NCBI GenBank assembly: GCA_026770705.1
Contig: JANJGN010000034.1
Location: forward strand, 2,914,001 to 2,978,000
Reading direction: 5' to 3'
Origin: Isurus oxyrinchus
Lineage: Eukaryota
Length of the DNA: 64,000 bases
Shown here: piece after piece, positions 1 through 61,298 of the stretch
Numbering within the stretch: position 1 is the first letter of the stretch
Layout of the letters: every line of letters begins with the position of its first letter
The notes under the pieces: generated by a model
Seen by the model: only the letters and a program-made list of their open reading frames with translations
What the model was told of the DNA's origin: nothing
Database searches by the model: none
Program-made: the position numbers and the translations under genes

Positions 1-350
1 GCCCAGGAGAAGATTGGTATAATCAATTTCCTGGAGAGCAAAGACATTAAATGGATGAGGGTTTCATCAGAATGAGTTGAGGCAGGAGCACAGGAGAGTG
101 GTGTCACAAAGGGGAGAGGCTGCATCAATACTCTGGGTGAAGACAGTTATGGAGTCGAAGCTGAGCTCCTGGTCAAACCTGACGCCTAGTTTTCAAAAGG
201 CCCCGTGCAAGTGCATGAAGTTTTTCGGGAAAGGGATTGAATCCGGGACGAGGATGTGGGGAATGTTGAAAAGCAGAGCAAGTAACTTCAGTGGTCCGAA
301 TAATTAGGCAGAGAAAATTTCTCATTGTCGGCAGAGTTGGTTGAATGACA
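1..350 (-). mobile_element. Decayed L2-type LINE fragment
   Basis: Resembles by eye the antisense L2 copy around 42700-43000 in this window; heavily decayed. Confidence 0.45.
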
Positions 351-810
351 ATGCAAAGGCAGTTACCTAATTTTATTAATTTAGTTTAATTGTTTAAACT
401 CTAAAAGAGTTATAAAGGCAGTTATATTCGGAGTTCATCGTCCACCGGAGCTGGTTCCGGTTCAAACTCTTGATGCAACTGATTCTGTGTCACTAGGGGG
501 CAGATTGCAGATGATTCTTGGGGAACTTCCTTAGTTACTGGGCTAGCACAGGAAGAGAAGCTGTTGAAGAAGATTTCAATGTGGGGAGGTCGAGATTCGC
601 TTCTTGTCAATTTATTGAACTGAAGAAAATGTTACTATTTTCTCTCCCTTCTGCTTGCAACAGGATCACAATACACAGAGGAAAAGGCCAATAGAACTAC
701 AGGGACCATAGCTATGTTATTTCCCGTATTGAAATACGTAATCAAGTTTTTCCACTGACCTGCATCCTTAAGGACGAGTTTTAGATTTTCCAGCTCTGAA
801 AAATCAAGGA

Positions 811-1212
811 GTGGTCAGTTTGGTACTACCCTTGCCTCTGGGACAGTGCGTAATCGTTTCGATACCAAGTGAGAGACACAGATAGATATCTCTGTTCAAG
901 CAATCAGAATTGATAGAGTGATGCATTAATGACGGTGCCTTCTTTCAGATGAAAGGCTGAACAATGTTTCTGACTCAGATGGATACAAAAGGAGCACAGC
1001 CAGGAATTTAAAGCAAAGAGATCAATTGATGTACTGGGACAATCTATTACAAAAAAAAACAGTGAAACAAAGTAATTAATTCGTCCATTGTAGCTCATTC
1101 CTGCCTATGGAATGATGCTGTGCGCCAATTGGCTACTGCCACTCTGACTAAACTTCAACAACATTTATTTCGACATTTAATGACGTATTTGGCTCTTTAA
1201 AGTCGCTGCATA
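811..1212 (+). mobile_element. SacSINE1/DeuSINE-like SINE, decayed
   Basis: Head (ggtactacccttgcctctg), Deu-domain-like core (ggtgccttctttcagatga...tgctgtgcgccaattggct) and tail (ttggctctttaaagtcgct); similar to the copies at 3496-4570 and 6600-7010; family name from recalled consensus. Confidence 0.7.
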
Positions 1213-3196: not shown

Positions 3197-3223
3197 CTTT
3201 CTCTTTCCTGATAAACTTTTGTT
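3197..3223 (-). CDS. Micro-exon B7 (27 nt): EQKFIRKEK
   Basis: attttcgtctccttccag|AACAAAAGTTTATCAGGAAAGAGAAAG|gtaaca. Confidence 0.9.
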
Positions 3224-6200
3224 CTGGAAGGAGACGAAAATTTAAGATTTATTGTTCAGAGCAGAAGCTGAAGATCAGTTTCAACGAGGAGCATGGACGA
3301 ATGATTTGCACCAGTTCAGCATAACTGGAAATGCATTGAATGCTCAAATGCTTTGTCGTTCCATGTGTGCATTATAAAGAAAGCACCATTTATTTCATGC
3401 GGTTTCGAAGAAAATAAAAGACCCAGTGGAAGGAATATTTAAATGAACCGTCGGATTTTAGCATTTGTGACACTACTGCCGATTTTTCTTCCTATCAGTA
3501 GGGGGCACTACCGACTCTGAACCAGGAGATAAAAACTTTAGGTCGTGAGCTCCCTCCCCCATCCCCACCCACTTTCTGTTTCCCCCTTTTTTCCCCCAAT
3601 AAATTATATAGATTTTTCTTTTCCCACCTATTTCCATTATTTTTAAATATTTTAAAATCTTTTATGCTCCCTCCACCCCCACTAGAGCTGTACCTTGAGT
3701 GCCCTACCATCCATTCTTAATTAACACATTCGTTTAGATAATATCTCCAACTTTAACTTTAACACCGAGTTAAAGACAAAGAAAACTGCGGATGCTGGAA
3801 ATCCAAAACAAAAACAGAATTACCTGGAAAAACTCAGCAGGTCTGGCAGCATCGGCGGAGAAGAAAAGAGTTGACATTTTGAGTCCTCATGACCCTTCGA
3901 CAGAATTTTAACACCTATGTGTTCTATTGTACCATTGTCGCTGACATCTTTTGATGATCTGCTTCTATCACTGCTTGTTTGTCCACACAACCACACCCCC
4001 CCCTCTCTCTATCTCTCTGCCCCCCACACACACACACCTTAAACCAACGTATATTTCAACTCTTTCTTGGACTCAAAATCAAGTTCTGTCGAAGGGTCAT
4101 GAGGACTCGAAACGTCAACTCTTTTCTTCTCTGCCGATGCTGCCAGACCTGCTGAGTTTTTCCAGGTAATTCTGTTTTTGTTCTGAACCAGGAGATGTTG
4201 GTTATCACTCCTATTCCACAGAACTTCAGGACATAATACAAATTGACGTCCCTGGCATCAGTAATTAATTATGGAAGCTCTGACTTTTCAGTGAGATATC
4301 AAACGAGGTCCTGTCGGCCTTCTCAGCAGGAAGTGAATGACCCCATAACAATATTAGAAAATTCATGGCACATCCCCTTTCTGTCGTGGTTAACACTTAT
4401 CGCTCGACAAATATTAGCATTGAAACAGATTAACACCGCTAAGAATCTTATTGCTTTTATAGGCCATTGTTGTGTATTTCAATAGAGAATGCAGCTCAAA
4501 CTTACGCAGTTGACTCTGAAGCATTTTGGACGTCCGGAAAGATGCACCGTCAATGTAAGAGCGTTATTTATTTAAGCTGTTATCTTTAGATTTTGTCATT
4601 TTCAGTGCGGATTGTTATGGCAATTTAAAGTAATGACCATTCAGTACGCACTTAGAATACGGTGCGGTGCATGAGGGCCCGTTTTGTTCGGCGAATTTTA
4701 ATTACCATGTAACATTTTCTGCAGAAATAGATATCTCAAGGACCATCCTTCTTTTGAAAGCATAATATGGTTATGCAATTGTGCAGACTTAAAATTAGCA
4801 TACAAAATTTCCACTGTCTTCGTGAAAGCCTTAATTCTTCAGTTCAGTGACCACTGATTGTATGGACAGATAAATGCATTACTATCACAAAATTAACATA
4901 ATATAAAGTCGTGCTAGATCCAGTGTTGACCCAACATTCTGTCCATTACCAAAAGTAACTACCAACCATATGCTATATCGCATCTCTATTCTTCGGGTAC
5001 AGAAAATGCTTCTCAATGTGTTACCTGCTTTTTCCTGATTATCATGCGTTATGACCCAACTTTTGGTTTAGCCAACATCTGGAAACACATTTTTCTCTGG
5101 CTATACTATCGAATTGGTACATACTTAAAAGAAAAACTCTATCCGGTGACTTAAACAACTCTATCCGGTCACTTGTAATTGTTTGTTCGTGGGTCATATT
5201 ATTTCAGATGAATGGTGTCGACGCCGTTGGTGATTTTGAATTAATTTATTAAAAAGGATTTTAGATATTCTGCATACGCTAAAACACATACGAGCTGTAC
5301 TAGTGAGAGCAGATTATGGGTGCCGGCTGGATGTATTGTTGGGAGAAGCAGTGGAATGCTGATCTCCATGGTTGGCAGTTCACTAGTCCCAGGCCTGACA
5401 AACGGAAGAATGAAACTAATCTTAATAGCTGGACTTCTGAATCTCTTGTGTTTATTTGGTTTTACTGAGATACCCAACATGCTAAGTAGGAGCCAGCATT
5501 GTTACATCTCGAGAGGACATTCCGTGCCCGAGGAGATCTTTTCTCTTCTTGAAAGCCAGTTTGTATACTTGATTTCAGATGGTGTTAAGCCCAGCGCAGA
5601 GTCAAATGTTCAATTAGAAAAGGATAGATATTCAAGGCATCCCCTCCCATTTCTGTTGTCTTGCGGCTCGTCACTTACTAAACATCCAGTTTAATTCTTA
5701 TTCATACGGCTGGTATGGGCCATAGGAACACCCCATTGTGAGGTCTTAGAAAGTCATGTTTTAAACCCTGTGCGACAGCAATAACGGCCGATTTTGTCCT
5801 TTGTTTGTGAACACATGATGTTTTCTTCAGGTATGTGTGTGTGAGAGAGAGAGAAAGAGAGAGAAATAGAGAGAGAGAGAGAGGGAGAAATGCCAACACT
5901 TTCCAATAAGTTTCTTAAGATTTTTAAAAGGCTTACACAATACCCATCCTTCTCTTTCCCAGAAAGCATGCCTTCATCATTTCAGATTGGTATAAGTTTG
6001 CGGTGCTGATATAATCTTTCTGACATTTTAATCCATTCCCACTGCCTCTCACCCTATTTATGCTATGCTGAATATTACATCATACTTGACGTGTCCTCTA
6101 ATAAGGTTTCCTTTCAAATGCAAGATAGATTTTCTATTTTATATCCTCACAAATTCACTCCAGCTCTTTGTTTCCATTGATGTGAAATTTATAATCTGTT

Positions 6201-9200
6201 CTTCTCCTATTAACCGATTTCCGAGTCTGGACAATTGGACGCTTTAGCCGTCGACAACAGGCAGCTTTAAGGGATATTTGGGAAGTGTTTAGTTTCCATC
6301 AAAATGTAACACGTTACATTTAATTATGCTCAGATAAGTTTCAATCTGCCTGTTCAGCAGATGCATTAAGGTCTTCAAATATGTTGTTTCATTCTCCCTC
6401 TGATTAACTGCTCACCAAACTTGCATTCGTCGATAAATTTCGAAGTGGTGCGTCTGTACACGGAGTACGTACTTTTTATGGAAATGCAGAATAATAGTGT
6501 TTGAATTCCCCGACACTTGTGAACACCACTTCTGAATATTTTAAAAATATTTTTCAATAGGTGCTTTTTGATCCATTTGCTTCTCTAATCCACTGATGCA
6601 CTTTAAAGAAAGATTGCATTTCTATAGCACATTTCCTGTCCTCTCGAGATCTCAAAACGCTTTACATTCAAGGAAGTATTTTTGAAGTGAATTCACTTAT
6701 GTAAATTAGGATGCACGGCAGATATTTACACACAGGAAGGCTCATTCTAAAAAGGGTTTGTGTTAAGAATCAGTTAATCTCTTATTGTGATGGTGATTGA
6801 GAGATGGTGATGAATCAAGACACCAGGTACAACTCCACTGCCATTCTTTAAAGTAGTGCCATGAAATAGTTTAACTCCACCTGAGAAGGCAGATGGGGCA
6901 TTGGTTTAAGGTCTTACATAATGCATCACATCGTGCTTGGATCAGCACTCTCTCAGCACCGCATTCTGCTATCACCTTTCGTTTTTTACTGGTTAAATCT
7001 CTGGAATGGAGCCGTTCCTCAATATGCTTTGAGTCAGAGGAAAAAAACATTCTTTCTTGCTGCCAATATATGTCACTTGAGGAATGTAGTTGACTTGACA
7101 CCAGATGGCTACATGATGATGGGAATATTAAATTGAATCTCTCAACATTACCCATCTGCATTATTGACCACCCTCGATGGACCATTCACAGAGGAACGCT
7201 ACCTTTCGGAATGAATGGAAGAGAAAACAAGATGTAAAATTAAATATTCCGATTAACCTGACATCATTAGCAACATCAATCTTAGGCAATGATATTCGAG
7301 GCTTGATAACAAGGCTCTTAGAATAACGTAATATTACACGGTAAAGTCAGCACGGGATTATGGCAGGGAGGCCTTGTTTGACAAATCATTTGGAGTTTTT
7401 GCGATTGCTACGAGTAACTCCGATAAGAGGGTAGCATTGGATTTAGAGTCTTGGAATTAAAAAAAAACAAAGCTTGATAAGGTGCTATTGGATGCTGTTC
7501 ATCAAAGTTGCAGTTAAAGTGATCGACCATACTACATTTGTATCTAGTGAGGGTTCTTAACTTTGAAAAGGGGCAGTGGGTATCATAGGTTATTTCACAG
7601 CTGACAGGGTGTAATTACGAAATATCAAGAGGACCATTGCATGTAAGTTACCTTTTAAAAGCTATATCAAGTATGTCGAATGAAGGACAAGTGTTCAATG
7701 TACTAAGAGTCTCTCAAAGCTTTGCACCAGTACCTAGTCTACCATTCCAAAATAAATCAAATTCCAGATTGAAATCCTGTCTGCAAACTGAGGGATGGAG
7801 AGCCGTCTCACCCCTAGGAGAGATTAGGATCCAAGTTCTGAATTTTTCCTCCACAGATCAATCTTCTTTCGAAGAATGCAAAAAGAGAGAGAGAAAAAAA
7901 AAACTGAGTATAATCAATATGAACACTCCAACGCCAAAAGATGAAACACAATTCTGTCAATGGTACAACATCCATGTCTAGTGTTAGGGAAAATTAAGCA
8001 GCAAAGATAGCTCATGATCTTATGGCGTTGAGACTGCTTGGGTACTTGACTTATCTATTTGCCTAGCCCCTGCCGCTTAACTACAGCAAAAGGTTATAAT
8101 ATTGTATGATATTCATGTGGTTCGGTGTAAGAAGCAGATGTCAGTGTCTAAATGTCAGACACAAAGCAACGCGAGACACTTATGGTTTATGCAGTTTTTC
8201 TCTGCAATATACATACATGACTGACCTAATTGCACAAACTCTATAAATTGCCTATGTCCACTCTTTAGTCCACCCTTGGGTGTTGGAGCAACTCTCAAGT
8301 AACTCCTATGTATATACTGCAATAAGATTTCTGAACGGGAGATGCAGACTCCGTGTGTAGATTCCACTGAACCTCCACAACATCTAGTGATAGAAATATG
8401 TAATATTTTACAGTCATGGGATGTGACCGGTGGTGGAAGGTATTTCCCTGTGAAAGTCGTCTTGAGCTAGCTTCTTGCACCGTTGCAGTCTGTGTTGTGA
8501 AATTAATGCAATTTTGCTGTTGCACCGGTAGTTCCAGGATTTTCCCCCATTGACAGTGAAAGGGGAGCGACATGTTTCCAAGTCAGAATGGAGAGAGACC
8601 TGGTGGGCGAGTTGTAGTTTCATCCCCCCATGCACTTCTTGTCCTTGTCCTTCTGGGTGGTAGATGTCAATGATATAGAAGTCGATGACATCTCTAATAT
8701 TCAAGAAAGCATGGAGATAAAATAAGAATCTATAAGACATCACTTATTGTCTTAGTGCTAAAACATATAGTTAATAATATAACATGTAGCTATGGCTTAT
8801 GTGGCTGGGATAATAGAATAGATTAATAGCAGGAATAGAGAGCCGGAGTAAATTGGTCATTTTCGTGTTTGGCAGCAGGAACTACCAAGAATAAGTGCTT
8901 GGACATCTGTAATTCATAAGCGTTAATGGCTGAAATAATGGACTAAGGACTATTTTTCCACGTTTGTTTATGATACAACGTTAGGTGGAAAAGAGCAGCT
9001 GTGAGGAAGAATGGAATAACATACACGTGATGTGGACAATTGAGTGAAGAACCAAACATGTGAATTATTGGACAGAACAAGGAGAAATGTGACCTAATCC
9101 ACTTAGGGCGGAATAGGAAACAAACCTATTTTTAAATGGTAAGAGACTGCGAAATGTTCATGTTCAATGGATTCTGTGTGTCCACGTACTCAAAGTACAG

Positions 9201-12200
9201 ACAAGTAACATGATGGCACAGAACGTAATTAGAAGAACAAATGTCATGTTAGTATTTAATCTAACAGGTTGGCGTATGTGAGTTAAGATGACCTATTGCA
9301 AATTTATAGGCTCATCATGAGGCACCACCAGGGGCGCTGTGCACACCCGGTTATTTTGCTGAGGATGAAGATATTTGCCTTGCACTGAGTGCAATGGAAG
9401 CTTGAAGGATTGAAAGATTTGATGGTGGGGTTATGTTTTGTGTGATATTAACTTTTTGACGAATAAGTAATGATTGCGTTGAAACACCTAAAATTCTTAA
9501 GGTAGATGCCGGGACAACATTTCTGCAATTCGGAGAGTCTATAATGGCAGATTATGGAATCAGAATAACAGGTAGGTCCTTCAGTTCAGATAAGAAAATG
9601 AACATGTTCCCTTAAATGCTTGCGAATGTTTCAAATTCTGTCCTACACAGATTTGTGAATGCTAAGTCCCAGAACATATTCATGGCTGGGATTAATATAT
9701 TTTTCAATGCTAAACAAAACAAGGGAAATGTGAGCCTTTTCAGAAAAGGTAGCAGTGCTCGCAGATCCGTATTGAGGGGCGGATCAGCTCGTTGGTTCCT
9801 ATTTCCTATGATCTTACGTTATCAAGTTTGTCAATATTCAATTAATTGTCCATCAACATAAATCTTATGCGTTTTGTTAATATCTTATTGCAATTTGCTG
9901 TAACCCTCATACTTTCAGTTTTCAAAACATTGGAATCCAAGAAGGGGATTAGCCTGCTCAGCTCCACATGCAAGTTATGCAGCAGACCGAAGCTAATGTG
10001 TATCCTAACTTTATCTACCCACTTTAATTCTGCAATACAAAATACATTTGACAAACTAATACCCAGAGTTGTCAGTTTTGTCATGTCTTCAACTGCATTT
10101 TCGCCAAGAACTTTGTGAGGGAATGCTTCCTAACATAACAGTTTTACACTCTATCTATAATCTTACGATTCTGTTGCATTGGTGTGGAATCACGCACAAG
10201 AATTTGAGAACATAAGAACAGAAGAAACAGGAACAGGAGTAGACCATTCAGCCACCGAACCTGCTCCGTAATTCATTAAGATCAAGGCTGAGCTTTGTTT
10301 CTTTTTCCACATTGCATCAACATCCGATAAGTTTTGGTTCTCTTGCTTGACAAGAATCTATCTACCTCTGCCTTATAATCTATTCAGTGACCCCGGCTCA
10401 ACGAGCTTCTGAGGCAGAGAGTTCCAAAGTCGCAAAGCCTTCTAAGAGAAAAAAAAATGTCCTCATCTCTGTCCTGAAAGTGCGACACCTAATTTTAAAA
10501 CAGTGCCCCCTAGTTCTGGACTCACCCACAAGAGGAAACAATCTTTTGGCGTCCACCTTGTCAAGGCCATTCAGGGTCTTGTATACGTCAATCAAATCGC
10601 CCCTCATTCCTCTAAACTCCAGCGGACACAAGGCTACTATGTCCAACCTTTCCTCATAAGACAACCCACTCAGTCCAGAAGTCAACCTAGTAAACGTCCT
10701 CTGAAAAGCCTCCAATACACTTACATCCTTCATAAATAAGGGGGCCAAAACAGCAGCCAATATTTGAGATGTGGTCTCAGCAATGCCCTGTATAACTGAA
10801 GCATAATATCCTTAATTTTATGTTAATAATCTTAAATGCCTAAAAGCTATCACTCCAAAATCTTTCATAACGAAGTGAATACAATCCTCATCTATGCTAC
10901 CTGTTGTTCTGATTTAACTCTTATATCCCGGATGCACTGCTGTGAATCGACACTGCTGCTCATGCAGGTGCAATATAATTCCCTGTTGTTCAGTTAAAAT
11001 ACAGTACTCCATGTGCTATCTCACCAGAGTTCTGTAAAGTTCCCTCGTATTTAAGGCTCTTTTATGTTACATTCATTTTTACAAAAAGGCCACTCTCCAA
11101 TTATAATGTCAAATGTGGTGCATACCTGCCCATTACATGTTAGTCATATCTGTACTTGGACGATTAAATCTCTCTGATCGCTCACTATTCCTAACTTCTA
11201 GCCAGTTATAAAGTTATCCAAGTCCTATTCCTTAGACCCAACGAGAATGATAGAATTTCCACAGTGAAACCCATCTCTCTGTTCTGCCCATTATACTTCA
11301 CATTTGACTTTTTCCTTTGCAACTTTTTTCAGGTACATTGTCCACTATGCCACAGAACTGTATCCTGTCAGCAAAGTTATGTTTGCATTTTACAAAACCT
11401 ATGGTTTTCATTGGAGGCTTTGTGGTGCATCAGGTAGAGTCCTTGCCATTGAGTGGGAAGCTTTAGCCCAATGCTGCACTCCAGGTCTTGAGTGGTGAGG
11501 AAAGGCCATTTATAATGTGGCTAAGAGAGGTGAATATCAACTTTTAACTCCTTTCAACACACGCCAATGGCAGATGATTAGAGCGAGAGAGGTTCCTACT
11601 CAGCCATGTGATGGAAAGTAATTAGAGCAGCTACATAGTTCCGGACTGCAACAAGCATGCACAAATGCATGTTGCAAAAGCAACTCTGTGTTATTGGGGT
11701 ACCGCTTTGCCTAGCTGTGAAATAGATTGTTGCGAACATGATTGGATCCATCCACGTTGCGGGCTGGCTCTAACTTTTAGACCTACCTGATGAGGCTTTG
11801 GGGAGGTGGTAACCTCAGGCAGAGAACTCAAGAGGCAGCACAAGGTTTCATCCTTCTAAAGAAGCAGATATGACATCGGCAAAAATCTGTGGCCCCAATA
11901 GTGATTATTAATTGACTTGATGTGTGATACTTTGCTAATATCAGTGCTCTCCTTAGAACTTTCTTCCATCTCCTAGCTGTTAAGTTATTCATTATTCCGT
12001 ATGTTGTCTCCTTAGTTGCCATTAAGTTCAGTAAACAGCATGCATAAATAATAGTCAAAGCAAAAACATGAGACATGATATGAAACATGGATCTCACTTA
12101 GATCACCACTTAGTCATACACGCTGAGGGGATACTACCATAATTTCAAATTTCAAGCCATGAATTGTTTCTGTCTCAAAATTAGCGGCTGCTATACACTT

Positions 12201-51200: not shown

Positions 51201-54200
51201 TGTTTGAAAGGCTGTTTAAAGAACGAATGAAAATGCAAATCCTAAATGTAATTCAACGGACAGAATGGTCCCCTTCTGTGACGGAAATGACTCCATGGCT
51301 ATCAGAAGACCATTACATCCATTACATATCAAAGCTAACAATAGGTTCTGGGCTTCTTGTTCGAATCACGTGGAAAATCCATAGTTTGGTTGCACACTTT
51401 CGTGGAAGTCATCATAACTGAGCTAGATTCGGGTTACTTATGGAACATTAGAGAGATAGACTGGGAATAAATCTCAACAATTGGGTAAAGTTTGTTTTTG
51501 CTGAGATATCGTTTAATTCCTGCAGAATGGAAACATGTACTTGGAAACAAACAACATCCGGATCCGTAGTAGGCTTTCAAGCAAGGAATGCTCAGAGTTC
51601 GTAGCAAGCCTTTTCTCTCAAGGAAAAAAAAAAGCAAGGTACGGCTCACAAGCCCAGGGACCTTGTATGTCAAGGAGATAAAAGAGAGAATTAAGGAAAT
51701 AAAGAAGGGACCTTACACTTCTTGCGAAAGGCTAAATATAGTGCAAAACTTGGAAGGATATAGAAAAAAAAAACAGAAGGAAGTTAGGACGGGAAAATCA
51801 CGCAAGTAAAAGTATTGTGAAGCAAACTTAAGGTAAATCAACAGTTTTTTTTTACTTAATAAAGCAAGGTGATAACGAATAAGGCGCTCCTCGGCACCAT
51901 ATCGGTGTGTGGAGGTGGGGAATGTTGGAATAATTCTTACTGAATGGTTTGCTTGTGCTCTCTTGACGAAAGAGAGGCTCAATGCTGACAATGCAATCCA
52001 GGAGGAGCATTGTGAAGTATTTGATGAAATTAACATAGCGAGGTAGGAAGTTTTAAACATGTTGACATCTTTCAATGTGGATAACTAACCAAGCTAGAAA
52101 GAAATGCATCCGAGGCAGTTAAGGTACGCAAGCTAACGAATGTTGAAGTTTCTTATCATCGTTTTCCAAACGTCTCTAACTACAGACGTGTTGCCAGAGT
52201 GCAGCAGGACAGATACATGTTTACCATTGTTTGAAATGGGATAAAAAGGATAAGTCAATTAATTGCAGGCCGGCTAGCTTACTATCGGTGGTGCGGCAAT
52301 TATTGGAATGAGTTCTTGTGTCAGGGTAACCCTTCATTCAAAGAAACACGGACCAATCAAAGACAATAAGGACGAACTTGTTAAGGGATTTAATGCTGAC
52401 TGACTTGCATATCTCTTGTGAGAATGATGAGGGAAACCACTTTGAAGTACTCAGCATGGGTTTTAGATAGGGCCTCGATCAGGCACCACATAGTAAAACG
52501 TTTACAAAGTGTGATTTGGATTCAAATTTGGCTTAAAGGCGGAAGGGGAAAGTTAATGTTTGAGGATCTTTATTCATTTCATTTTTGACTGTGCGGCTGT
52601 GTACAGTGGGGTTCTGCAAGTTACGGCCCTAGGTCACTTGTTCTTTGTAACATATTTCTATGATCTGTGCTAGAATTTATTGGAGGTGATTAAGCAGGTT
52701 GCCTTCGTTAAAACAAATTGTCATGCTGTTGATAGTGGAAGAAAAGTGCTTTAGACAGTGATAAGTGGACTGATCAGATGGACAGAAGACTGGCTAGTGT
52801 AGTTCAATATGTCATTAGGTAAGTTTGCAGTAATGCATTTGCAAAAGGCTAACGAGGTAAGTGAAGATAGAATTAATTGTTGCACCCGAGGTTGCCAACC
52901 CAATTCAGTTACTTGAAGGGACTGCTCCTTAATTTTTGTTTGCATGTCAGCCCAACAGTCCGGATTATCTGCCAGCCGTTGCAGAGGTGGTGGTAATTGG
53001 GCGGGAGGGTGGTGGCTGGGAGGGAGGATGACCTCCTCATAAGCCTCGTCCTGGGCCTGGCCGAGTGGCCATCAACAATTACAGGCAGAGAACGAACACC
53101 GAGATTTTCTGACCTTACTGTCTCCCTCTCAACTGCAGCATTGTTCACGGCCAGGTGACTCTGGAGTGGGAGCACGCAATGACTACCAGGACGCTTGAGG
53201 CCTTACATGGCCAATGGGCAGCACGGAGGCTGGGGCACATCATCACTCCCGGGAATCTATTTTTGGTTTAGTTAATTAATTTTTTTTTGATGCTTTGATT
53301 TCAGTTGCTGTGGCGCACTTGGGGCTGTCATTCCCTCTGATTTATTGGTTTTTCATTAATTTATTGATTTTTGTTTTACTGAAACACTAGTGTGATTGAT
53401 TGGATACTGTATTGCAGAACAACAGTGGGACCTTCGAGTGTGGACAGGTGGGTAAGCTGGTCAAAAAAGCATCGGAAATATTGGACTGTGTTCACCAAAA
53501 TAATATAAGGCTGTCAGGTTATGCTGAAATGCCTGAAACACTAATTTAAGCAGCGGTGATGTACTGTATGCTGTTCTCCTTTCCACACTGTGGGAAAGCT
53601 GTGGTTGCACTATAGGTGGACTGGCCGAGATTTAATTGGATTTTGCATGAAATAGAGAATTTTAGCCATGGCGAAGGGGTGGCTAGGCTGGGGTTGTCTA
53701 CTTTGGGGTACATGAGGCTGAGCCTAACTGAATTGCATGAATTTATGAAGAGTGTTGAAAGAGAATTCATAGATGTGTAGTAATAAGTAAGAGTTTAAGC
53801 TGCGATTTAAGGACCCATTTCACCCAAGTGGCAATCTGGAATGAAGATTTAAATCCGCATAACGTTAAGCAATACTCGTATATACGCTTTAATTCCCCCA
53901 ACCTACGGACAAAGAGTTGGAAAGTAGGTGTAGGCTGAATGGTTACTTGTCAACCAATGCAGATACGATAGATTGAACGGCATCCTTCCACATTGCGAAC
54001 TTCCATAATTCTATGATTACATAAACCATTTGATTGGCATCCCAACTAGCACCTCATGCCTGCTATCCATCCATCATATTCACAGTTTGCGTAAAGTATG
54101 TGTCATCTTCAAGATGTACTGCAGTGCTTCACCATTCCTACATTGATGACATCGTATAATTTTTTGACACTTGCTGCCGAGGTAAAATAAAGGACATCTG

Positions 54201-57200
54201 ATGCATAGCAATGACACTAATTCCTGGCCATGAAGGCTAGGGAGTTGCTAATATATAACCGTTCTGTCATTGTCACTATGTCAATATGTGGGAGCTCCCT
54301 TCCAAGCAGCACTCTGGAATTACCTTCACTATTCAGACTGTAGTCGTTCAAAAATACATCATTCACACTCCAGAGTCACGAAAGGTTGACAAAGCCTAAT
54401 TAATTTGGCTGCAGCGTAAATGTCAGATGACCCTCGAAATGTAATTAAACGTTTTATACCAGTTTCTGTTCAATCTAAATTGGGTTCATGAGCGACACCG
54501 TCCTCCTATTGTCTGGTCATACTCTCTGATAACGTTCCATTCCATTCATTTGTAGGTACATATCTGCATTCCCCTTACAATGAAATCCGTCTCAACCTCT
54601 CAGCATGGCCTTGCATTCAAGAGTCTAACCAACAATGGAATGTGAGCAATTATTAGTTCCATGGAAGCTGCATTGTTCCATCGAGTTACAGGGGCTGATT
54701 GTGATAATCAATCGACTGCTCAGTTATCCTTGCTGGATCGGAATACAATAATGCCATGTGACAATTGATCCTTTTCACCTAGGAACTCCTATAGTATCAA
54801 TACTGTAAAATTGCACAACCCTCTTTACTCGTTTACTCATGCGCAGAGGGTGAAGTTAGTCACAGATTACATACCAGCGTATTTTACGGTATCAACATGT
54901 TATCAATCATACCTTTATCTTTGTCGGCCAAGTTGATTTCTAATAGAAACAAAAATGAGAACAATTAATCCCTTTAATCACGGGGCAATTAGTAACACAA
55001 AAACAGAAGAAATTGGAGAAGGGTGGAACATATGGCTGGTCGAGACTGCTCAGTCATTCAATAAGATCATGGCTGATATTGGGCCTCAACTGTATTTTAA
55101 TGCCCGCTCTCCATATTCCTCAATTCACTGAAAGACCAAAACTCCATCTCTCCTAGCCTCAAATTCATGCAACGATGGTTCATCTACAACCCTCTGGGGT
55201 AAAGAATTCCAAAGATTCACAAGGCTTCGATTGAAGTAATTTCTCCTAATCTCCGCACTATTGAACTGCCCTTCGTCCTGAGGTTGTGCCCCCTTGTCTT
55301 AAGTTCCGCAACCAGAGGAAACAATTTCTCAGCATCTCCCATATAAAGTCCCTGCAGAATTTTTGCAGTTTTCACTGAGATCGTCTCTCATTCTTCTAAA
55401 CTTCAGAGAGCAGAGGAATAATTTTCTCAGCCTCTCATCATGGGGTAAGCTACTCGTCCTGGAGGCTAATTTAGCGACCCTTCACTTTACCAGCTGCATT
55501 TCAGGCCTGTCATTAGTTGAATATAGAGACCTGATAGGCACACAGCACTCCAGAAGTGGTCTCTCGAAAATGCTTTACAATTGTAGCAAGACTTTTTCAT
55601 TATTTTACTCCAGTCACCTGCAATGAAGTTCAGTATGCCATATGCATTCCGACTTGCTTGGTGTACCTGCATGCTAACTTCTTGCATTTCTTTTAGGAGC
55701 AGAGCCAAGATTTTTTGAACATCAGGACTTACATGTTTCACGCCATTGAAGCAAAATACGGCTTTTATAATCTTACGGTCAAAGTGAATAGCTTCACACT
55801 TCCATACATTGTACTTCGTCTGCCATCTTGTTGTCCAAATCACGTACCTGTCGATATCTCTTTTCAGCCGCTCATTGCCCTTCCTGCAGTTTACCATAAC
55901 ACATAGCTTGACATCACCAAAAAACTTAGATATGTTACTTTCTGTCTCTGTATCTAACTAATTAATATAAATTGTAAATATTTCAGGCCGTAGGACTGAT
56001 TCTTGACCAATCGACTATTCACTACCTGAAACTTGAAAAGCCACAATCATACCCATGCTCTGCTATGTCCGATGTCTTTCTTTCTGATATTGTGTTTTTC
56101 AATAGAATATATTTTAGTTGAACTTTTAACTAATGTAAACAGGTGTCATTAATCTAATCTTGATTACCTATTAGTCCGAATTCCACGAACCCCTATCTTG
56201 CCTATTAACCATTGGTGTTGCACCTTATCAATACCTTTTGGAAATCGACCTTCACAACTTCAACTTGTTCCCTTCATCCATCTTACTAGTTTCATGCTAA
56301 AAACATTCTATTACATTTTTCCAAACAGATTTTCCTGAATAAAACCACGTTGTCTTACTCTAAACATATTATGATCTCCTACGTGCATTTTGAAGACTTC
56401 CTTCATGATAAATTCCAGCATTTTCCGAAGAACTGATTTTTGGCTCAGCAGTCTGTAATTTATCGATTTTCACTTCCCCTTTATTTAAAGATGTGCAACA
56501 ACTTCCAAATTCCAAATTAAACAAGCCATTCCCGAATCAAAGGAATTTTGTAAAATCATGGTTAACACATTCATAATCTCTGCAACCATCTCTTTTAGGA
56601 GCCTAAGGCATAGGCTATAGGATCACTAGGATTTGTCAGATTTTAGTCCCTAAAATTTCTCAGGTACCTTTTATCTATAAACTTTCCTTAATTTCCTAAC
56701 TCTTTTTAGTGCCTTCGCTACTCCCTATTTCTAGCATTAAACACATGACTTTTACTGTGAATACAGATACAAATTATTTGTTCAATTCCCTTGCAATTTC
56801 CTCATCACTCGCCCCGAATCTGCACCTCTTGTTTCTGCTTCTAGGGAACCAACGTTTACTCTAGCTTCTCTTTTCCTTTTTATATGCTTATCAAAACTCT
56901 TTCAATCTGTTTTTATATTTTTGGGCTATTTCCCTCTCCTATTCTACTTTTTCTCTTATTACCAAAATTTTGATGTGTCTTTGCTGGTTTTTGAAACAGT
57001 ACCAATACTCAGACTCACTACTGCTTCTTTTTTGTCTTTATGTTTCCATTGCTAGCTTTCTGATTGAACCACGGACTGGTCTTTCTTTCTGATTTTTTTT
57101 TCAACTGAATATTTTTCAGTTGAATATTTGACTTGTTTATTTCAATGTTTTACGCTCTTCATTATTATCCGTACCATTTAGTCTATTTTCCAATTAAGCA

Positions 57201-60200
57201 AAGTCAGTATTTCTCTCGTACCAATGTAATTGGTGTTGCTAAGTTTATGATTCTCTTTTGTGATTGGAGTACATCACCTGCAATATTCATAAGGAATAGA
57301 AGTGTGTTATGATTGCTATTTCCCAATGGAGCAATTACAATGACAATAATAATCAACCATCCTTCATTACACGATACTCTATCTAAGAAGGCTTTATCCT
57401 GAGTCACTTTCACAGCATTTGTCTCCACGAAGTTGTCATGGGATCATTCTACATCTTCTAGACCATTTTTTCCAATTGAACTGTCTCAGTCAAAATGGAG
57501 ATCAAAGCTGTCTGCAAGTATTAGGCTTCCATTGTAACATGTTCCAAAAAAAAATCTGTCCAAAAGTTATTATGACTGTCAGGGTATTTATAAAATGCTC
57601 CGAACAATGCTTTATGGCTCTTTATAATTCCTAATTTCCACACATACTATTTAGGCCTCATGGTCTTTAGAGGTTGGACCCTTTCTCATGAATGTCCATA
57701 TTTCATCCTTTGCTATCGTGACTATCACTCCTCATTTGCTATTTTCTCTGTCTTTCCAAAATTTGATGTACCTGGAATATTTATTTACCATTTCTGATCA
57801 TCTTGTAACCATGTCTCAAAAAAATGGCATTCATAACCGAAACACTACTCCCATGAATGCTGAAAATAAAGTCACTTGTTGCCGCATTTGACTGAGAGCT
57901 GAATATTGGATTAGCAGAATGTTTTATTAACAGGCTCAACATTGACAACTAGGAACGTAACAACTAGCAGAATGTTTTGTTAACAGGCTCGACATTGACA
58001 ACTAGGCACGTAACAATTTCCGTTTATATATTGTTGTGGTGAAGGGAGGGAAGGCAGATTTGGCATCTTTCTTCCCCGCATTAAACTGCAGCAATCGATA
58101 ATTTGTGAAGAGGTTAAGGGAAATGGTTTTGAAGCTTCCCAGCAATTTTCTCCTAGCAGTCATTTTAGTCCATTTGGAGAGGCAATGATAAGCGAATGGT
58201 ACTTCATTGGACTTATAAGAGCTAATCAGGTGGAGTCAATGTTTCCACATTTAAAATACTAATTCTTTTTCTTAATATTATCATAGTCTTAGGCTTTCAA
58301 GTGAATAATCAATCAGTGTGCTTTGGTACTTTTAGTTATTTTAATCAGAGACTTTCAACAAATAAAGCGCAATAATGCTCTGTCCAATCTTCTAACCTCG
58401 ATGTAAAAAAAGAACCCTTTACATAATAAAAACTAACTTTGTATCCGCAATGCCATTGACACTCAGCACGTCAGAGTTAATGCTTAGACAGAAGTTTCAA
58501 TCTTCTTCTGAAAAGTTCTGTTCTGAAGATGTCATATTCGGCTCAAAACGTTACCTCTGTCTCTCTTTTTACAGTTGCAAACAGACCTATTGGGTATTTT
58601 CAACGCCTTCTGTTTTTACTTCAGATTTGCAGCATCCACGGGATTTCACTACAATTAAAATTAAGTTGTGGTTTAACTTGGATATAAGAGTGTGATGGGC
58701 AATTTAGGGGCTTGTAATCCAAATAATGTAAGATCAATTTCTATACAAACGGCAGTTTGCAATATCCATTTGGATTTGTAAATGCCAAAATGCTCAGCTC
58801 ATAAAAGTAACATGTTACGGGTAAAAGGGTAATGGTGGAAAGACTATACACTCACTAAAGAAGGTGCAAGAATTATTTAAAATAATTACATCATAATGAA
58901 AGCGCACAATTGTGACAGAATACTGAATAGGTGAAGATGGGTAAGGGTGACTTGATAAAGGTTTTTCAGATTATAAATGGATTTGCCATCAAAAGGTAGA
59001 AATTATGCTTCCATTGTCGGAGTGGACAGATTATGGCATAGATGCAAAACAGTTATACATTTATCGAATATGTAATTCAGGAAAACATTCTTTCCCCATA
59101 GGATGATTGAAATTTGAAACAGCTACTGCATGTAGTGAACAGAATACCAAGCAGATAAAGGAACAGGAAATGCAGGTATGGTATATGAAGCAGAATATTG
59201 TTGAATAATCGCCTGGGCAATATCCAACAGCACAGGGAATTTGGACGAAATCACATGTTTTCATCTTATGAATTCTGTGTAATATGAAATGATTTATAAA
59301 ATGGCGGAATAGACTACTTCTATCAGTTGCATTAGATGACCGTGGTAGTTCATTATGCTAAAGGGTTGCCGGGATAGGTATAGTTCGAATGTGGAAAAAG
59401 CTGGACAATTATAGAGTAGAGGCTGATGATTGATTTGGAGAATATAACAATGGTGAATCGTTATTAAGCTCTGTAGTCCCTGGAGGAAGTCAGGTAGGAA
59501 TTTAATCTGGAAGCAGCACAAAAGTGAAAGCATCATAAAGACCGTCCTTTATACTCAATGTTTCATATCAAGTTAACGTCATTTCAGTAAAACAAAGCAT
59601 CAAGCAGATTGTGCAACGTGATGTCGTGTGATTCCCTTGATTTAGCGCAGCCAACCAAAGTGCATTTCTACAGCAGGCAAACATGTTTAATCAAGCCATA
59701 TGAAGCCATCATGGGACAATAGAGAACTTGCAAGCAGATTCATAATGTAGTTGCATAATGTGATGAGATAGGATCAAAAGAATAATTCGAGCTGCTATTT
59801 TTTTGTTTTTTGTTGGAAAAGAGGAGTTCAAAGGGATCTCTTAGGCAAACATTACATTTTGGCAAAAGTCGATGAACGCTGATATGTGAGGCTGTTTCAA
59901 TAATGTGGATGACTGGTACAAGGGATACATTAATAACATCACGTAAGCATATAGTGTATAGTCAACAAGCTAAACGAAATTTGATGAGCTCATGAGGAAA
60001 CTGTACAGAAAGAGGCCATAACTCATTTTGTTTCTCATTAAGGTATATATAGAATTAATCCCTATCACGAGGACATGGAAAGTAAGAGCAAGAATATACC
60101 ATTTGGACCTTCAAAGCTATTGTTATTGGGATCATTGTTGATCTTCGGTGTCAACTTCACCTCCCTGCAATTCTATTGATCTCTGTTTTTAGCGTACAAC

Positions 60201-61298
60201 ACCCATAGGCAGTGATTTACAAAGCTTAACAATCATTGAGTTAAACAAAAGTCTCCTCTTCTCAGCCCTAAATGAGTGACCCCTGGTAGTTAACACATTG
60301 TCCAATAATTATAGACTAGACAGCCTGGCTAAACAGCCTGGATAAACAGCGTACCAGCATTTACCTTGGTGTCCACCATAGGACTTTTATAATTTTGAGA
60401 GATGACCTTTGATTCTGTTCACCTCCCAAGAATTTGGCATTAATCTGCTCAATCCTTTCTCATAGCAAAATCCTCTGATCCCCAAATTAGTCCATTGAGC
60501 CATTGCTGCATTCCTTTTAATGTAAACACATCCTTTCTTTTATAAGTGGATTAAAGAAAACTGTACAAAGTACTCTAGCAGTAGTTGCATCAAAAAATAG
60601 CAACGCATGTAATCTATCCAAAGACCTGTGTCCATTTGGTTTCCCAACGTATATACAAGCTACTTTTGAAAACTAATGTTGAGTATTCTTTCATCACCTT
60701 TTGAAGATCCACTTCCCCTAACCATTTGCTGCGTAGAGAAAAGAAATCCTTGCCAGCGTGCCTTTGCTTTTTTGTAATTAGCTTAACTGTGCATTGCCAA
60801 CTGTCCTTTTATGGGCATCTTTCCTCCTAATCTTTAAGTATCAAAACATTTCCTAATCTTGAACGACTCCATGAAATCTCTGTTTAATCCTTTCTGCTCA
60901 AGAAAGAAAAATATTAACTTCCTTATTCAACTTGCACACGGGGATTAAGGAGAAGATGGTCACTGAAGCGATCATTATGATGACATTTGAGAATAGTTTA
61001 GATAGGTGGCTAACAAAATAAAATGGGTTAAGAGTCTCTTGAGGCATAGTGAATACAAGGAATTAGCCACAGTGCAAATAGCAAAAATGAAAGTGAAATA
61101 AATTGATAAGTCAATGTCTTTTCTCCCTATTTTGGCCTTGACATCATTCAAGATAACATTCCGATTGAGCAAAATGCCTGAAAGTAGCTGACCAGCCTAA
61201 TATGTTTCTAAGGCTAGGAATCAAGCCTACAATAAAACGTGAACTCAAACGTTTACACTTACCTCTTTCTCTGAGAGTATTTTTAAGAGTTTCCATCC
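3197..61298 (-). CDS. Partial multi-exon gene (both ends not found): coiled-coil region encoded by 14 alternating 36-nt and 27-nt phase-1 micro-exons, 7 x 21-aa repeats; possibly a butyrophilin/BG-like or other coiled-coil protein
   Basis: join(complement: 61263-61298, 54913-54939, 44106-44141, 42005-42031, 38423-38458, 33969-33995, 32279-32314, 30832-30858, 24341-24376, 18765-18791, 13620-13655, 12833-12859, 12235-12270, 3197-3223). Every exon is bounded by AG and GT and lengths alternate strictly. The 441-nt join is stop-free and translates to self-similar repeats with heptad periodicity. The family assignment is inference only. Confidence 0.88.
3496..4570 (+). mobile_element. SacSINE1/DeuSINE-like SINE split by a Penelope insertion (SINE parts 3496-3530 and 4197-4570)
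   Basis: SINE head (gggggcactaccgactctgaaccaggaga) resumes after the insert; 15-bp direct repeat tctgaaccaggagat at 3516-3530 and 4182-4196. Confidence 0.75.
3531..4181 (+). mobile_element. Young Penelope-like 3' fragment with a nested inverted pseudo-LTR
   Basis: Similar to the 3' UTR of the Penelope element at 27690-28180; about 100-bp inverted arms at 3807-3906 and 4084-4182; 15-bp TSD. Confidence 0.85.
5831..5888. repeat. (GT)n(GA)n compound microsatellite
   Basis: gtatgtgtgtgtgagagagagagaaagagagagaaatagagagagagaga. Confidence 0.9.
6600..7010 (-). mobile_element. SacSINE1/DeuSINE-like SINE
   Basis: Reverse-complemented tail (aaagaaagattgcatttctatagcac...aaaacgctttaca) and core (tccacctgagaaggcagatgggg...cagcactctctcagcaccgca). 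Confidence 0.75.
7250..7640 (+). mobile_element. Decayed CR1 RT fragment
   Basis: Remnant of the SQHGF..GR.CLTN..EFF motif (agtcagcacgggattatggcagggaggccttgtttgacaaatcatttggagtttttg). Confidence 0.6.
8670..9830 (+). mobile_element. Decayed CR1 LINE, RT region to 3' end
   Basis: Remnants of VD..L.FKKA, D(T)LGG and the CR1 C-terminus; ends in ttcctatttcctatgatctt tail. Confidence 0.65.
10205..10825 (-). mobile_element. CR1 (HER1-like) LINE 3' end
   Basis: ORF 10398-10760 LEAFQRTFTRLTSGLSGLSYEERLD...RGDLIDVYKTLNGLDKVDA..LFPLVGESRTRGH is the CR1 ORF2 C-terminus; gaacataagaac tail repeat. Confidence 0.9.
12235..12270 (-). CDS. Micro-exon A7 (36 nt): ELENLKRTLQDE
   Basis: ttttttgttgtttcgttttcatag|AACTAGAAAATCTGAAACGGACCCTGCAAGATGAAG|gtcaat; strong acceptor, weak donor, close match to the repeat consensus. 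Confidence 0.85.
12375..12523. other. Assembly gap (149 N) in the intron between micro-exons B6 and A7
   Basis: Run of n flanked by purine-rich low-complexity sequence. Confidence 0.99.
12833..12859 (-). CDS. Micro-exon B6 (27 nt): DQKLIKKDK
   Basis: attcatgttcccaccag|ACCAAAAGCTCATCAAGAAAGACAAAG|gtgagg; 22/27 nt identical to exon B7. Confidence 0.9.
13620..13655 (-). CDS. Micro-exon A6 (36 nt): AIGKLKDTINEM
   Basis: cttatttatctccgttctag|CCATAGGAAAACTAAAAGACACCATCAATGAAATGG|gtgagc; the other two frames contain stops. Confidence 0.9.
14930..15215 (+). mobile_element. Decayed CR1 3' end
   Basis: ttttttttatgcagcgacttattttgatcttggattcac followed by a CR1-like 3' UTR. Confidence 0.55.
15900..17630 (+). 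mobile_element. Decayed L2-type LINE, RT to 3' end
   Basis: ORF 16287 LLKLTNDML...LVVLLSLPGAFSTVDHD..FQQL matches the L2 RT motif LLDLSAAFDTVDH; ITPVL motif near 17195; tail ctatataatg...gttgttgtt. Confidence 0.8.
18765..18791 (-). CDS. Micro-exon B5 (27 nt): EQKLAKKDT
   Basis: tttactttaattctcttag|AGCAAAAATTGGCGAAAAAGGACACAG|gtaagt. Confidence 0.92.
20020..20295 (-). mobile_element. SacSINE1/DeuSINE-like fragment
   Basis: acagcactccttcagtagtgctctagagtgtcaacctagg...aagctccggagtgcaacttgaatccatgacc resembles the reverse-complemented SINE 5' half. Confidence 0.6.
21230..22760 (+). mobile_element. CR1 LINE 5' part (ORF1 esterase-like, start of endonuclease) with a nested CR1 3' end at about 22205-22470
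   Basis: VVIDSVVSGLDRRFCGQRCDSKILGFLPGA matches the SGNH-esterase motif of CR1 ORF1; YFNAR and YDFIA.TE endonuclease motifs at 22610-22710; nested tail gatggttctatggttct. Confidence 0.75.
23060..24235 (+). mobile_element. Decayed Penelope-like element (GIY-YIG end, 3' UTR, pseudo-LTR)
   Basis: GTFPCKNRRCNTCP and KHRLSD.F...KHEPEIPVACHF; collinear with 26900-28180. Confidence 0.8.
24341..24376 (-). CDS. Micro-exon A5 (36 nt): EVENQQNLVFEC
   Basis: T-rich tract ending tttttctacag|AAGTGGAAAATCAACAAAATCTTGTATTTGAGTGTG|gtgagt. Confidence 0.9.
25150..25700 (-). mobile_element. Decayed CR1 3' end
   Basis: Reverse-complement remnants (tcccacaatactcacgccgaaacctaacc; ttatccaaattccttttt). Confidence 0.5.
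25870..28182 (+). mobile_element. Penelope-like element, 5'-truncated and frameshifted: RT + GIY-YIG endonuclease + 3' pseudo-LTR
   Basis: FYLLPRMHKQDCPGRTIVS, YASIPH, GPSYACLF and FLRCINDCF (decayed YIDD) RT motifs; NLVYCIRCSQCGLLYIGETNCRLSDHFVE GIY-YIG motif; TLQPSGLNIEF C-terminus. Confidence 0.95.
30010..30700 (-). mobile_element. Decayed CR1 3' end
   Basis: cctcgcacctgttccaccattcactgagatggtgactgat and downstream sequence resemble the copy at 10205-10825. Confidence 0.6.
30832..30858 (-). CDS. Micro-exon B4 (27 nt): ETKFSEKIK
   Basis: ttctaacttatgtttccctag|AAACAAAGTTCAGCGAAAAAATCAAAG|gtgagg; branch-point-like ctaac upstream. Confidence 0.88.
32279..32314 (-). CDS. Micro-exon A4 (36 nt): VLEKAKSDIADL
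   Basis: ttattattttcctacag|TACTAGAAAAAGCGAAAAGCGATATTGCTGATCTTG|gtgagt. Confidence 0.9.
33969..33995 (-). CDS. Micro-exon B3 (27 nt): EQNVYHKGK
   Basis: ttttgtaattcatgttgtaattag|AACAAAACGTGTACCACAAAGGAAAAG|gtgagg. Confidence 0.83.
34130..37950 (+). mobile_element. Long decayed CR1 LINE (5' UTR, ORF1, endonuclease, RT; 3'-truncated)
   Basis: ORF1 C..C..W and VVLLGDSLVRGT remnants; endonuclease ESIWVELRN...TLVGAIYGP...ILGNFN (ORF 35985); RT remnants to FANDTK and FNVNKC; two related 5' UTR segments near 34160 and 34500. Confidence 0.88.
38423..38458 (-). CDS. Micro-exon A3 (36 nt): EIEKNRNNLLDC
   Basis: ttttttgccacctcatcactaaag|AAATAGAAAAAAATCGAAATAACCTCCTGGATTGTG|gtgagt; weaker AAG acceptor, strong donor. 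Confidence 0.85.
39011..39188 (-). mobile_element. Penelope pseudo-LTR fragment with a fold-back end
   Basis: aaacaaaaccagaaaatgctggaaaaactcag ... ctgggtttttccagcattttctgtttttgttt inverted arms. Confidence 0.75.
39335..39520 (-). mobile_element. Non-LTR retrotransposon RT C-terminal fragment
   Basis: LRRVTHLLRPQSLSTTYKAHVRSVMEYS; related fragments near 46980-47290 and 48350-48530. Confidence 0.7.
40520..40660 (+). mobile_element. Penelope pseudo-LTR fragment
   Basis: gctgtcagacctgctgagattttccagca...tttccggcatctgcagtattttgcctttatt. Confidence 0.65.
41380..41635. repeat. Degenerate (GATA/GACA)n tetranucleotide microsatellite
   Basis: gatagatagatagacagatagatagataga... Confidence 0.92.
41640..41743 (-). 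mobile_element. Young Penelope pseudo-LTR insertion with a 13-bp TSD
   Basis: Differs from 3807-3904 at only 3 positions; gatagacagctaa at 41627-41639 and 41744-41756. Confidence 0.88.
42005..42031 (-). CDS. Micro-exon B2 (27 nt): DIRLNNKDK
   Basis: ttctgcattgctattag|ACATAAGGTTGAACAACAAGGACAAAG|gtaagg. Confidence 0.88.
42290..43480 (-). mobile_element. Decayed L2-type LINE, RT to 3' end
   Basis: ORF 43033-43281 TETALIKVANDIL...IVFPDLSVAFFTIGHSILLQCL; reverse-complemented tail acaacaaacacattttatttacatag. Confidence 0.85.
43965..44050 (+). mobile_element. Short retroposon 3' tail with poly(A), 55 nt from micro-exon A2
   Basis: agggtaattagggatgagcatttaatgctggcctagccagcaacgccacatcccaagaacgaac followed by A10. 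Confidence 0.6.
44106..44141 (-). CDS. Micro-exon A2 (36 nt): ELQKLQVNLQEC
   Basis: tttttgtgtttgttaccag|AACTTCAAAAACTGCAAGTCAATCTCCAAGAATGTG|gtaagt. Confidence 0.9.
45200..46960 (-). mobile_element. Decayed CR1 LINE, RT to 3' end
   Basis: ORF 46433-46642 PEGWEVVKLLLFLKK...YRLV..VNLT (decayed P.DW..A.V..LFKK..YRPVSLT); other CR1 remnants. Confidence 0.65.
48990..50323 (+). mobile_element. CR1 LINE, RT to 3' end
   Basis: LQTDMNRLSE...EYNVYKCEIVHFGRK; LEAVQ.RFARLIPGM.GL.YEE; 3' UTR aatggtggagcaggctcgtggggcagagtggccttctcccgctcc and atgttc repeats. Confidence 0.88.
50324..50790 (-). mobile_element. Penelope-like element 3' end (second family) with a hammerhead-like motif
   Basis: Decayed remnant resembling a GIY-YIG C-terminus at 50640-50790; minus strand ends tgtcCTGATGAgtgaaaggtGAAAagctTCggca. 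Confidence 0.7.
50336..50369 (-). ncRNA. Putative minimal type-I hammerhead ribozyme of a Penelope pseudo-LTR
   Basis: UGUC-CUGAUGA-gugaaaggu-GAAA-AGCU-UC-GGCA: intact CUGANGA and GAAA cores, UC cleavage site, stem I UGUC/GGCA, palindromic AAGCUU stem III; stem II is weak. Confidence 0.5.
51480..54020 (+). mobile_element. Decayed CR1 LINE interrupted at about 52870-53380 by an unrelated GC-richer insert
   Basis: RT remnants (PLFE.G...N.RP.SLLSVV; FN...K..VMHL) and 3' tail cttccataattctatgatt. Confidence 0.65.
54913..54939 (-). CDS. Micro-exon B1 (27 nt, phase 1-1): EINLADKDK
   Basis: tctcatttttgtttctattag|AAATCAACTTGGCCGACAAAGATAAAG|gtatga. Confidence 0.88.
54985..57890 (-). mobile_element. 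CR1 LINE (endonuclease-RT-3' end), starting about 45 nt from the acceptor of micro-exon B1
   Basis: ORF 55487-55897 RLKRDIDR...WQTKYNVWKCEAIHF; reverse-complemented 3' UTR (gctcagtcattcaataagatcatggctgat). Confidence 0.85.
57912..58016. repeat. 53-bp tandem duplication (2 copies)
   Basis: tagcagaatgttttattaacaggctcaacattgacaactaggaacgtaacaac then tagcagaatgttttgttaacaggctcgacattgacaactaggcacgtaacaa; 3 mismatches. Confidence 0.92.
58465..58650 (+). mobile_element. Decayed Penelope pseudo-LTR
   Basis: gttctgaagatgtcatattcggctcaaaacgttacctctgtctctc...ttctgtttttacttcagatttgcagcatc. Confidence 0.7.
60060..60600 (-). mobile_element. Decayed CR1 3' end
   Basis: Collinear by eye with 10205-10825 and 54985-55600. 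Confidence 0.6.
61263..61298 (-). CDS. Micro-exon A1 (36 nt, phase 1-1): (G)METLKNTLRER
   Basis: attcctttcatttcaccag|GGATGGAAACTCTTAAAAATACTCTCAGAGAAAGAG|gtaagt; the first residue assumes the preceding exon ends in G, as all others do. Confidence 0.87.

Follow-up and report, generated by a model that had tools for sequence, protein, structure and literature searches.

A micro-exon array on contig C34

The stretch of DNA analysed here (the window) comprises 64,000 nucleotides of Isurus oxyrinchus, positions 2914001-2978000 of contig C34 (genome G000); coordinates outside the window are given as the C34 position minus 2,914,000. Exons were detected in the window by scanning for splice signals and for matches to profiles, the profiles being seeded with three exons of 36 nt (type A, 12 residues) and five exons of 27 nt (type B, nine residues). 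The alternation of 36- and 27-nt exons reported in a preliminary description was recovered: 14 stop-free micro-exons flanked by AG and GT form seven A+B units on the minus strand and, as also claimed, all 14 are symmetric multiples of three in phase 1-1. In the direction of transcription, the array enters the window with the A exon at 61263..61298, just upstream of a duplicated block (further upstream, the array runs on to about +516 kb), and the B exon at 54913..54939, the first exon within this 72-kb block. The following A exons lie at 44106..44141, 38423..38458 (with an AAG acceptor), 32279..32314, 24341..24376, 13620..13655, and 12235..12270, and the B exons following each of them at 42005..42031, 33969..33995, 30832..30858, 18765..18791, 12833..12859, and 3197..3223. 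A fifteenth micro-exon, the eighth A, was found at 760..795, just beyond the limits of the preliminary description; from here, the array goes on downstream to about -201 kb.

The profile scores of the seven non-seed exons ranged from 20.9 to 33.1, while the next candidates on the minus strand of the window scored at most 5.9 and those of the plus-strand control at most 2.1. The longest run of strict A/B alternation in the gene comprises 24 exons and contains the window; runs of at least 23 were encountered in 0 of 5,000 shuffles of the exon lengths of the gene. An artefact or chance as the source of the alternation is ruled out by the plus-strand, profile, and shuffle controls. The introns of the window harbor a simple repeat of the (TAGA)n type (41409-41632) and decayed retroelement-like frames, judged as such by eye (25726-27703).

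The window represents the middle of a predicted gene of ~720 kb (about 722 kb), with the array extending on both sides from the most upstream micro-exon found (516,467) to its downstream end near -201 kb, which is followed by an intact exon encoding a PRY-SPRY (B30.2) domain. This terminal exon (-205,368..-204,848, i.e., C34 2,708,632-2,709,152; Pfam SPRY E 6e-15) possesses a phase-1 acceptor matching the phase of the micro-exons, and the best PDB match of its domain is BTN3A1 (E 1.5e-26). Of the 164 candidate micro-exons obtained with the generic exon filter, 91 measure 27 nt, 65 measure 36 nt, three measure 18 nt, and five have other sizes; the plus-strand control gave three matches. Some of the exon calls away from the window are false, and some exons have possibly been missed; with four doubtful candidates removed, the predicted rod amounts to 1,618 residues (about 230 heptads). 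At a helix rise of 0.1485 nm per residue, it would measure about 240 nm if fully helical; no part of it is encoded as a contiguous reading frame. The exon at 214527-214553 is the sole one among 160 with a GC donor. A B-like 27-nt candidate at -145070..-145044 carries an in-frame stop in its last codon and may be either a pseudo-exon or a truncating alternative exon. Downstream of the gene, large minisatellite arrays with long spurious open frames occupy -230,000..-246,700 and -379,000..-390,700. No transcript of the gene was found; around the B30.2 exon, the reads of four presumed-RNA runs fell on repeats, with no depth over most of the exon.

At 560119-560661, a paralogous array is closed by another B30.2 exon, which contains a stop. 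Since this exon bears a stop, a single gene exceeding 1 Mb was rejected; the exon could nevertheless serve as an alternative last exon of the gene described here. The distance between the stop of the next gene and the most upstream exon detected is only 44 kb. The start exon was found neither by ORF listing, Pfam, and tblastn nor by cross-paralogue comparison; none of the strong phase-1 exon candidates in the 44-kb interval is hydrophobic, and short signal or membrane exons could escape such a scan. Pfam matches to Ig, RING, or B-box were absent from 115 ORFs (out of 152 listed) located 5' of the gene and in the interval between two paralogues arranged head to head. Likewise, tblastn of 59 Ig and RING/B-box queries against sampled C34 DNA, with SPRY, not Ig or RING, as the positive control, yielded nothing convincing; one match (E 0.008) was on the opposite strand, about 110 kb beyond the 3' end of the gene.

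Heptad register and coil geometry

The 15 joined exons of the window are free of stops, and the hydrophobic periodicity of their translation peaks at 3.50 residues, with a power matched by one of 2,000 shuffles of the exon order and by none of 2,000 shuffles of the residues. The power of the heptad signal, 3.9 in the intact sequence, falls to 0.1-0.4 upon removal of one central exon but stays at 3.1-3.7 upon removal of an adjacent pair. The arithmetic proposed earlier, i.e., that 12+9=21 residues preserve the register and that single skips shift it by 5 or 2, is correct, as is the statement that these shifts lie outside stutter, stammer, and skip, though the two skips are unlike: loss of B corresponds to +5 and loss of A to +2. 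According to the accessible part of one source (PMC4786415), +5 can be spread as 19/5 and +4 as 18/5, while +2 breaks the helix to form a beta-layer. Hence, single skips are not all equally barred: the loss of an A exon is the strained case, and the loss of a B exon can be absorbed as 19/5.

The core positions are A2, A5, A9, A12, B4, and B7. Hydrophobic residues occupy A2, A5, and A9 in 97, 86, and 98% of 64 A exons, respectively, and B4 in 94% of 69 B exons, and Lys is found at B7 in 56 of the 69. Gene-wide, 103 of the 109 classified junctions were in register, four were stutters (+4), and two showed a +2 shift; upon shuffling, the in-register share averaged 48% and reached at most 67%. This count covers 109 of 159 junctions (50 being unclassified and the four doubtful exons left out), and the in-register figure is partly circular because the A/B profiles were trained on the same exons. 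In 55 units, the g-e' pair A1/A6 was attractive in 30 cases and repulsive in one, and the pair B3/B8 in 18 and two cases, respectively; the third g-e' pair displayed no preference (8 attractive vs 7 repulsive). Such a charge pattern would fit a parallel coiled coil.

The A-to-A spacings (n=62, counted after removal of two doubtful exons) comprised 41 of 21 residues, eight of 30, five of 39, and two of 18. The units of 18, 30, and 39 residues are located outside the window. The off-size units (28, 35, 18, and 39 residues) are often in register or represent stutters, and several 30-residue units resemble true B-B neighbors rather than linkers. Junctions between two 27-nt exons make up 28 of the 163 in the gene.

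Internal duplications, paralogues, and relatives

Most of the window is covered by a tandem intragenic duplication of ~72 kb with ~86% identity between the copies. Copy 1 occupies 1..58807 in the window and ends at -14936; copy 2 spans -15303..-85944. The block contains 20 exons encoding 207 residues, including an 18-nt B-like exon at -10917..-10900, and the duplication thus includes an 18-residue stutter unit, yet retains an A-to-B junction. Both AG and GT are preserved in 20 of 20 exon pairs, neither copy contains a stop, and 0 of 40 exon copies have been lost; under a neutral decay of 11%, the retention of all 80 splice bases has a probability of about 9e-5. The exons of the copies diverge at 37 of 621 bases vs ~11% in the flanks, with pN of 0.052 and pS of 0.097. 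Purifying selection acts on the duplicated exons of this block. The suggestion of the preliminary description that selection acts on the heptad register is supported by the 103 in-register junctions, by the duplicated pairs with preserved splice sites, and by the growth of a neighboring paralogue in steps of 21 residues; what selection preserves is the exons, and its action on the register as such would be a further step.

A second internal duplication, of 34 kb, adds 90 residues. In it, the acceptors of two single 27-nt exon copies (contig C34 near 3,173,921 and 3,230,482) have changed from AG to AA, the next AG being out of frame in each case. One of these exons encodes a Gly/Ser-rich linker, and without it a B-to-A junction is re-established; the other, of type B, has acquired a proline and lies beside a Gly/Pro linker. 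Both losses fall, accordingly, at or beside a Gly/Ser/Pro-rich exon. Four further sequencing runs gave no coverage at a lost-acceptor site. In an intron-homology analysis (four self-overlap links removed), the neighboring units of the window were not each other's best links, and hence they look old.

The same contig carries several paralogues, i.e., the array ending in the B30.2 exon at 560,119-560,661 and three more close ones; rod exons of 36 and 27 nt in phase 1 are present in two neighboring paralogues as well. In one of them (650,000-701,300), a tandem two-exon expansion is visible, with exon flanks still 67-78% alike. Of the 20 intron-homology links there, 14 correspond to multiples of 21 residues, and the remaining six all cross one weak 18-nt candidate, without which they are multiples of 21, too. 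The growth in 63-nt steps expected in the preliminary description therefore holds in this stretch of a neighboring paralogue but fails in the duplications of the gene itself, with their 207 and 90 residues; within the gene, the 63-nt rule is local.

In a third paralogue (contig C34 4,070,498-4,169,900, plus strand), exons of 21 nt, each equivalent to one heptad and many of them encoding Cys, occur in runs bordered by 36/27-nt exons, so that BG-like and 12+9 modules are found in one gene. Two paralogues arranged head to head are separated by a gap of 35 kb, in which an inverted repeat with arms of 281 nt (92%) and 146 nt (87%) sits at about 3,994,000-3,995,750 of C34; this repeat is a possible trace of an inverted duplication centered on a promoter common to both genes. 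On contig C21 of G000, more than 140 B30.2 exons, many of them in tandem, occur at about 82.9-118.2 Mb, and the exon at 89.72 Mb apparently belongs to the same B30.2 subfamily.

The nearest proteins are database models from sharks, rays, and chimaeras, which bear automatic TRIM-like names and lack RING and Ig. Six of these models (XP_055510696, XP_038668997, XP_038672306, XP_069775384, XP_042191566, and XP_078422387, named "TRIM39/58/69-like" or "A33-like") share 34-48% identity with the B30.2 domain of the gene in the aligned rows, and the subfamily motif [ML]-[LM]-W-[NT] is present. The models belong to the same B30.2 subfamily, and several of them possess the same A-like and B-like segments; in contrast to the gene, they are only 175-460 residues long, lack the long array, and carry TRIM names without RING or B-box. 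The gene belongs to an unnamed chondrichthyan family combining a micro-exon coiled coil with B30.2. Word-index protein searches, a weak method whose limit of 2,000 residues the predicted protein approaches, returned no long relatives. Atlas clusters of 1,277 and 1,579 residues, obtained with homologue queries after clusters with Ig or RING had been filtered out, list SPRY/PRY and are to be taken as leads only. A literature search, with most subscription journals outside its coverage, found no description of shark B30.2 coiled-coil microexon genes, the papers retrieved being confined to BG, butyrophilins, TRIM, and domain shuffling, and such genes are not mentioned in the accessible part of a 2026 survey of butyrophilins that includes cartilaginous fish (PMC12841164).

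Candidate readings and known systems

The preliminary description saw in the array a splice-tuned ruler, with regulated isoforms skipping A+B or B+A together to shorten the rod in 3-nm steps. The symmetry of all exons and the contrasting effects of pair and single removal on the heptad signal speak for such a ruler, as does the length of the chicken BG tail, which is varied by splicing, though through intron read-through (PMC5938342, in its accessible part). However, among 12 isoform models from three homologous genes, none shows a difference of 21 residues; the internal differences amount to 9, 9, 9, 7+9, and 6 residues, i.e., single pieces of 6, 7, or 9, and the pieces of 6-9 residues probably correspond to exons. 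In a catshark model, the missing nine-residue piece sits between B-like and A-like segments; in one ray model, it is charged and not an obvious linker. Database isoform models of this kind rest on RNA reads. Moreover, shorter length does not distinguish the introns within pairs (A to B, median 3,387, n=55) from those between pairs (B to A, 4,089, n=53; p=0.14), hence the pairs are not physically grouped, and one A+B pair makes up only about 1.3% of the rod. Single skips and same-length adjacencies, which the preliminary description had named as evidence against its proposal, do occur in the homologues and in parts of the gene outside the window. Paired skipping as a ruler is therefore improbable; it is unsupported rather than excluded, since the three genes are short family members, homologues and not orthologues of the strict run. 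No literature on alternative splicing of a heptad register or on microexon coiled-coil rulers was found in a search with most subscription journals outside its coverage. If true, a splice-tuned ruler would be the more surprising finding, but it is without support here.

About as improbable is the view that the alternation only reflects a two-exon block having been duplicated again and again, the register being free of selection. The tandem expansion at 650-701 kb shows that such growth takes place, and 21 of the 62 A-to-A intervals of the gene differ from 21 residues; against this, the units of the window look old, yet 24 consecutive exons are in register, no exon copy was lost from the 72-kb duplication, and the off-size units are often accommodated by the register or as stutters. 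Slightly more room, though still little, is left for an array that encodes the cytoplasmic tail of a butyrophilin/BG-like membrane protein, or a TRIM coiled coil, whose Ig, transmembrane, or RING exons were missed. The butyrophilins as the best solved relatives of the B30.2 domain, the BG-like runs of 21-nt exons in a paralogue, and the start exon missing from the 5' searches favor this possibility, which is opposed by the Pfam and tblastn results for Ig, RING, and B-box, by the mere 44 kb upstream of the first exon, and, as leads, by the long SPRY/PRY clusters of the Atlas. Least probable of all is an array broken into several shorter transcription units or belonging to a partly decayed gene: it would account for the short database models of the relatives, the 27-nt candidate with a stop, and the two lost acceptors, but strand and phase stay the same across 720 kb, with a single B30.2 exon, the block in the window is under purifying selection, and long SPRY clusters exist in the Atlas.

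Building on the exons, their heptad register, the phase-matched B30.2 exon, the two internal duplications, and the purifying selection on the duplicates, the reading preferred here (with a probability of about 0.62) is that of a ~720-kb gene whose ~160 phase-1 micro-exons are spliced mostly constitutively to encode a parallel coiled-coil rod of ~1,600 residues with PRY-SPRY, the pairs being its unit of growth, the breaks tolerated variation, and its role that of a tether. The ~160 micro-exons would thus mostly be joined constitutively into one parallel rod with B30.2 at its end. The 12+9 pair would be the unit by which this rod has grown over evolutionary time, held in register by selection and involving no splicing switch, and the rod would be divided by 18-residue stutters and linker-like 27-nt exons. 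Loss or skipping of single exons would be tolerated mainly at these breaks, altering flexibility more than length. A constitutive rod with optional hinges is likely because the observed variation falls mostly at linker-like exons; the hinge rule draws on two genomic losses and five isoform differences. The protein itself may serve as an extended tether or spacer that associates with itself and carries its B30.2 binding heads in pairs, resembling the heptad tail of a butyrophilin or BG enlarged into a free-standing protein.

A tentative extension, doubtful in its joint form, is a two-level exon code in an undescribed cartilaginous-fish family of giant genes with rods of at least 1,600 residues tipped with B30.2. 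In it, constitutive 12+9 pairs would lock the register and set the length over evolution, and optional linker exons would switch hinges by splicing, one skip fusing two segments in register. Should the gene model of the preferred reading, the largely constitutive rod, prove correct, the genomes of sharks and rays would contain a cluster of genes of very large size present in databases only as short misnamed fragments, and an immune-type B30.2 head would sit on a rod of about 240 nm. With pairs, stutters, linkers, and dated duplicates in one gene, the locus would offer a natural series for studying the mutual constraints among exon structure, duplication, and coiled-coil register.

Among the known systems, TRIM E3 ligases with PRY-SPRY share with the gene a coiled coil followed by a C-terminal PRY-SPRY. 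However, with neither the N-terminal RING nor the B-box typical of TRIM found, the gene does not qualify as a TRIM; its rod, encoded by micro-exons, has about ten times the length of a TRIM coil, and the charges fit a parallel coil, whereas TRIM coiled coils are antiparallel. The enterophilins of guinea pig are soluble leucine-zipper and B30.2 proteins without Ig domains and far shorter; they are likened to the gene by architecture. For an enterophilin, an interaction with SNX1 is described in the accessible part of one source (PMC13749957).

Butyrophilins (BTN/BTNL, e.g., BTN3A1) combine heptad exons with a single terminal B30.2 exon, and both traits, the one-exon terminal B30.2 and the small symmetric heptad exons, were found in the gene. 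Unlike in butyrophilins, no IgV or IgC exon was found, the sensitivity being moderate and without an Ig positive control, and the heptads number about 230 vs a few; with no Ig found, the gene does not qualify as a butyrophilin. As to a transmembrane segment, the strong phase-1 candidates of the 44-kb 5' interval included no hydrophobic exon.

A parallel in exon design is provided by chicken BG and the soluble "zipper protein", in which, according to the accessible parts of three sources (PMC4046983, PMC5938342, PMC8813856), a long coiled coil likewise arises from numerous short symmetric exons whose first codon is split, the genes differ in their number of exons, and they form a multigene cluster. 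The same sources assign to BG an IgV domain, a transmembrane segment, and 13-36 exons of 21 (sometimes 24) nt, with no B30.2, whereas the gene possesses ~160 exons, mostly of 36 and 27 nt, and a B30.2 exon, and no Ig was found. With B30.2 present, Ig not found, and exon sizes different, it does not belong to BG; the 21-nt one-heptad exons typical of BG account for one of its 164 candidates, although they occur in runs in a paralogue. The "zipper protein" of the BG tail acts on actin-myosin in the gut brush border (PMC4046983, accessible part), and by this analogy a cytoskeleton-linked role of the predicted shark protein would be plausible. In the accessible parts of two sources (PMC5938342, PMC8813856), "orphan B30.2" proteins are proposed as partners of BG tails, and the proteins of this family may be candidates for such partners.
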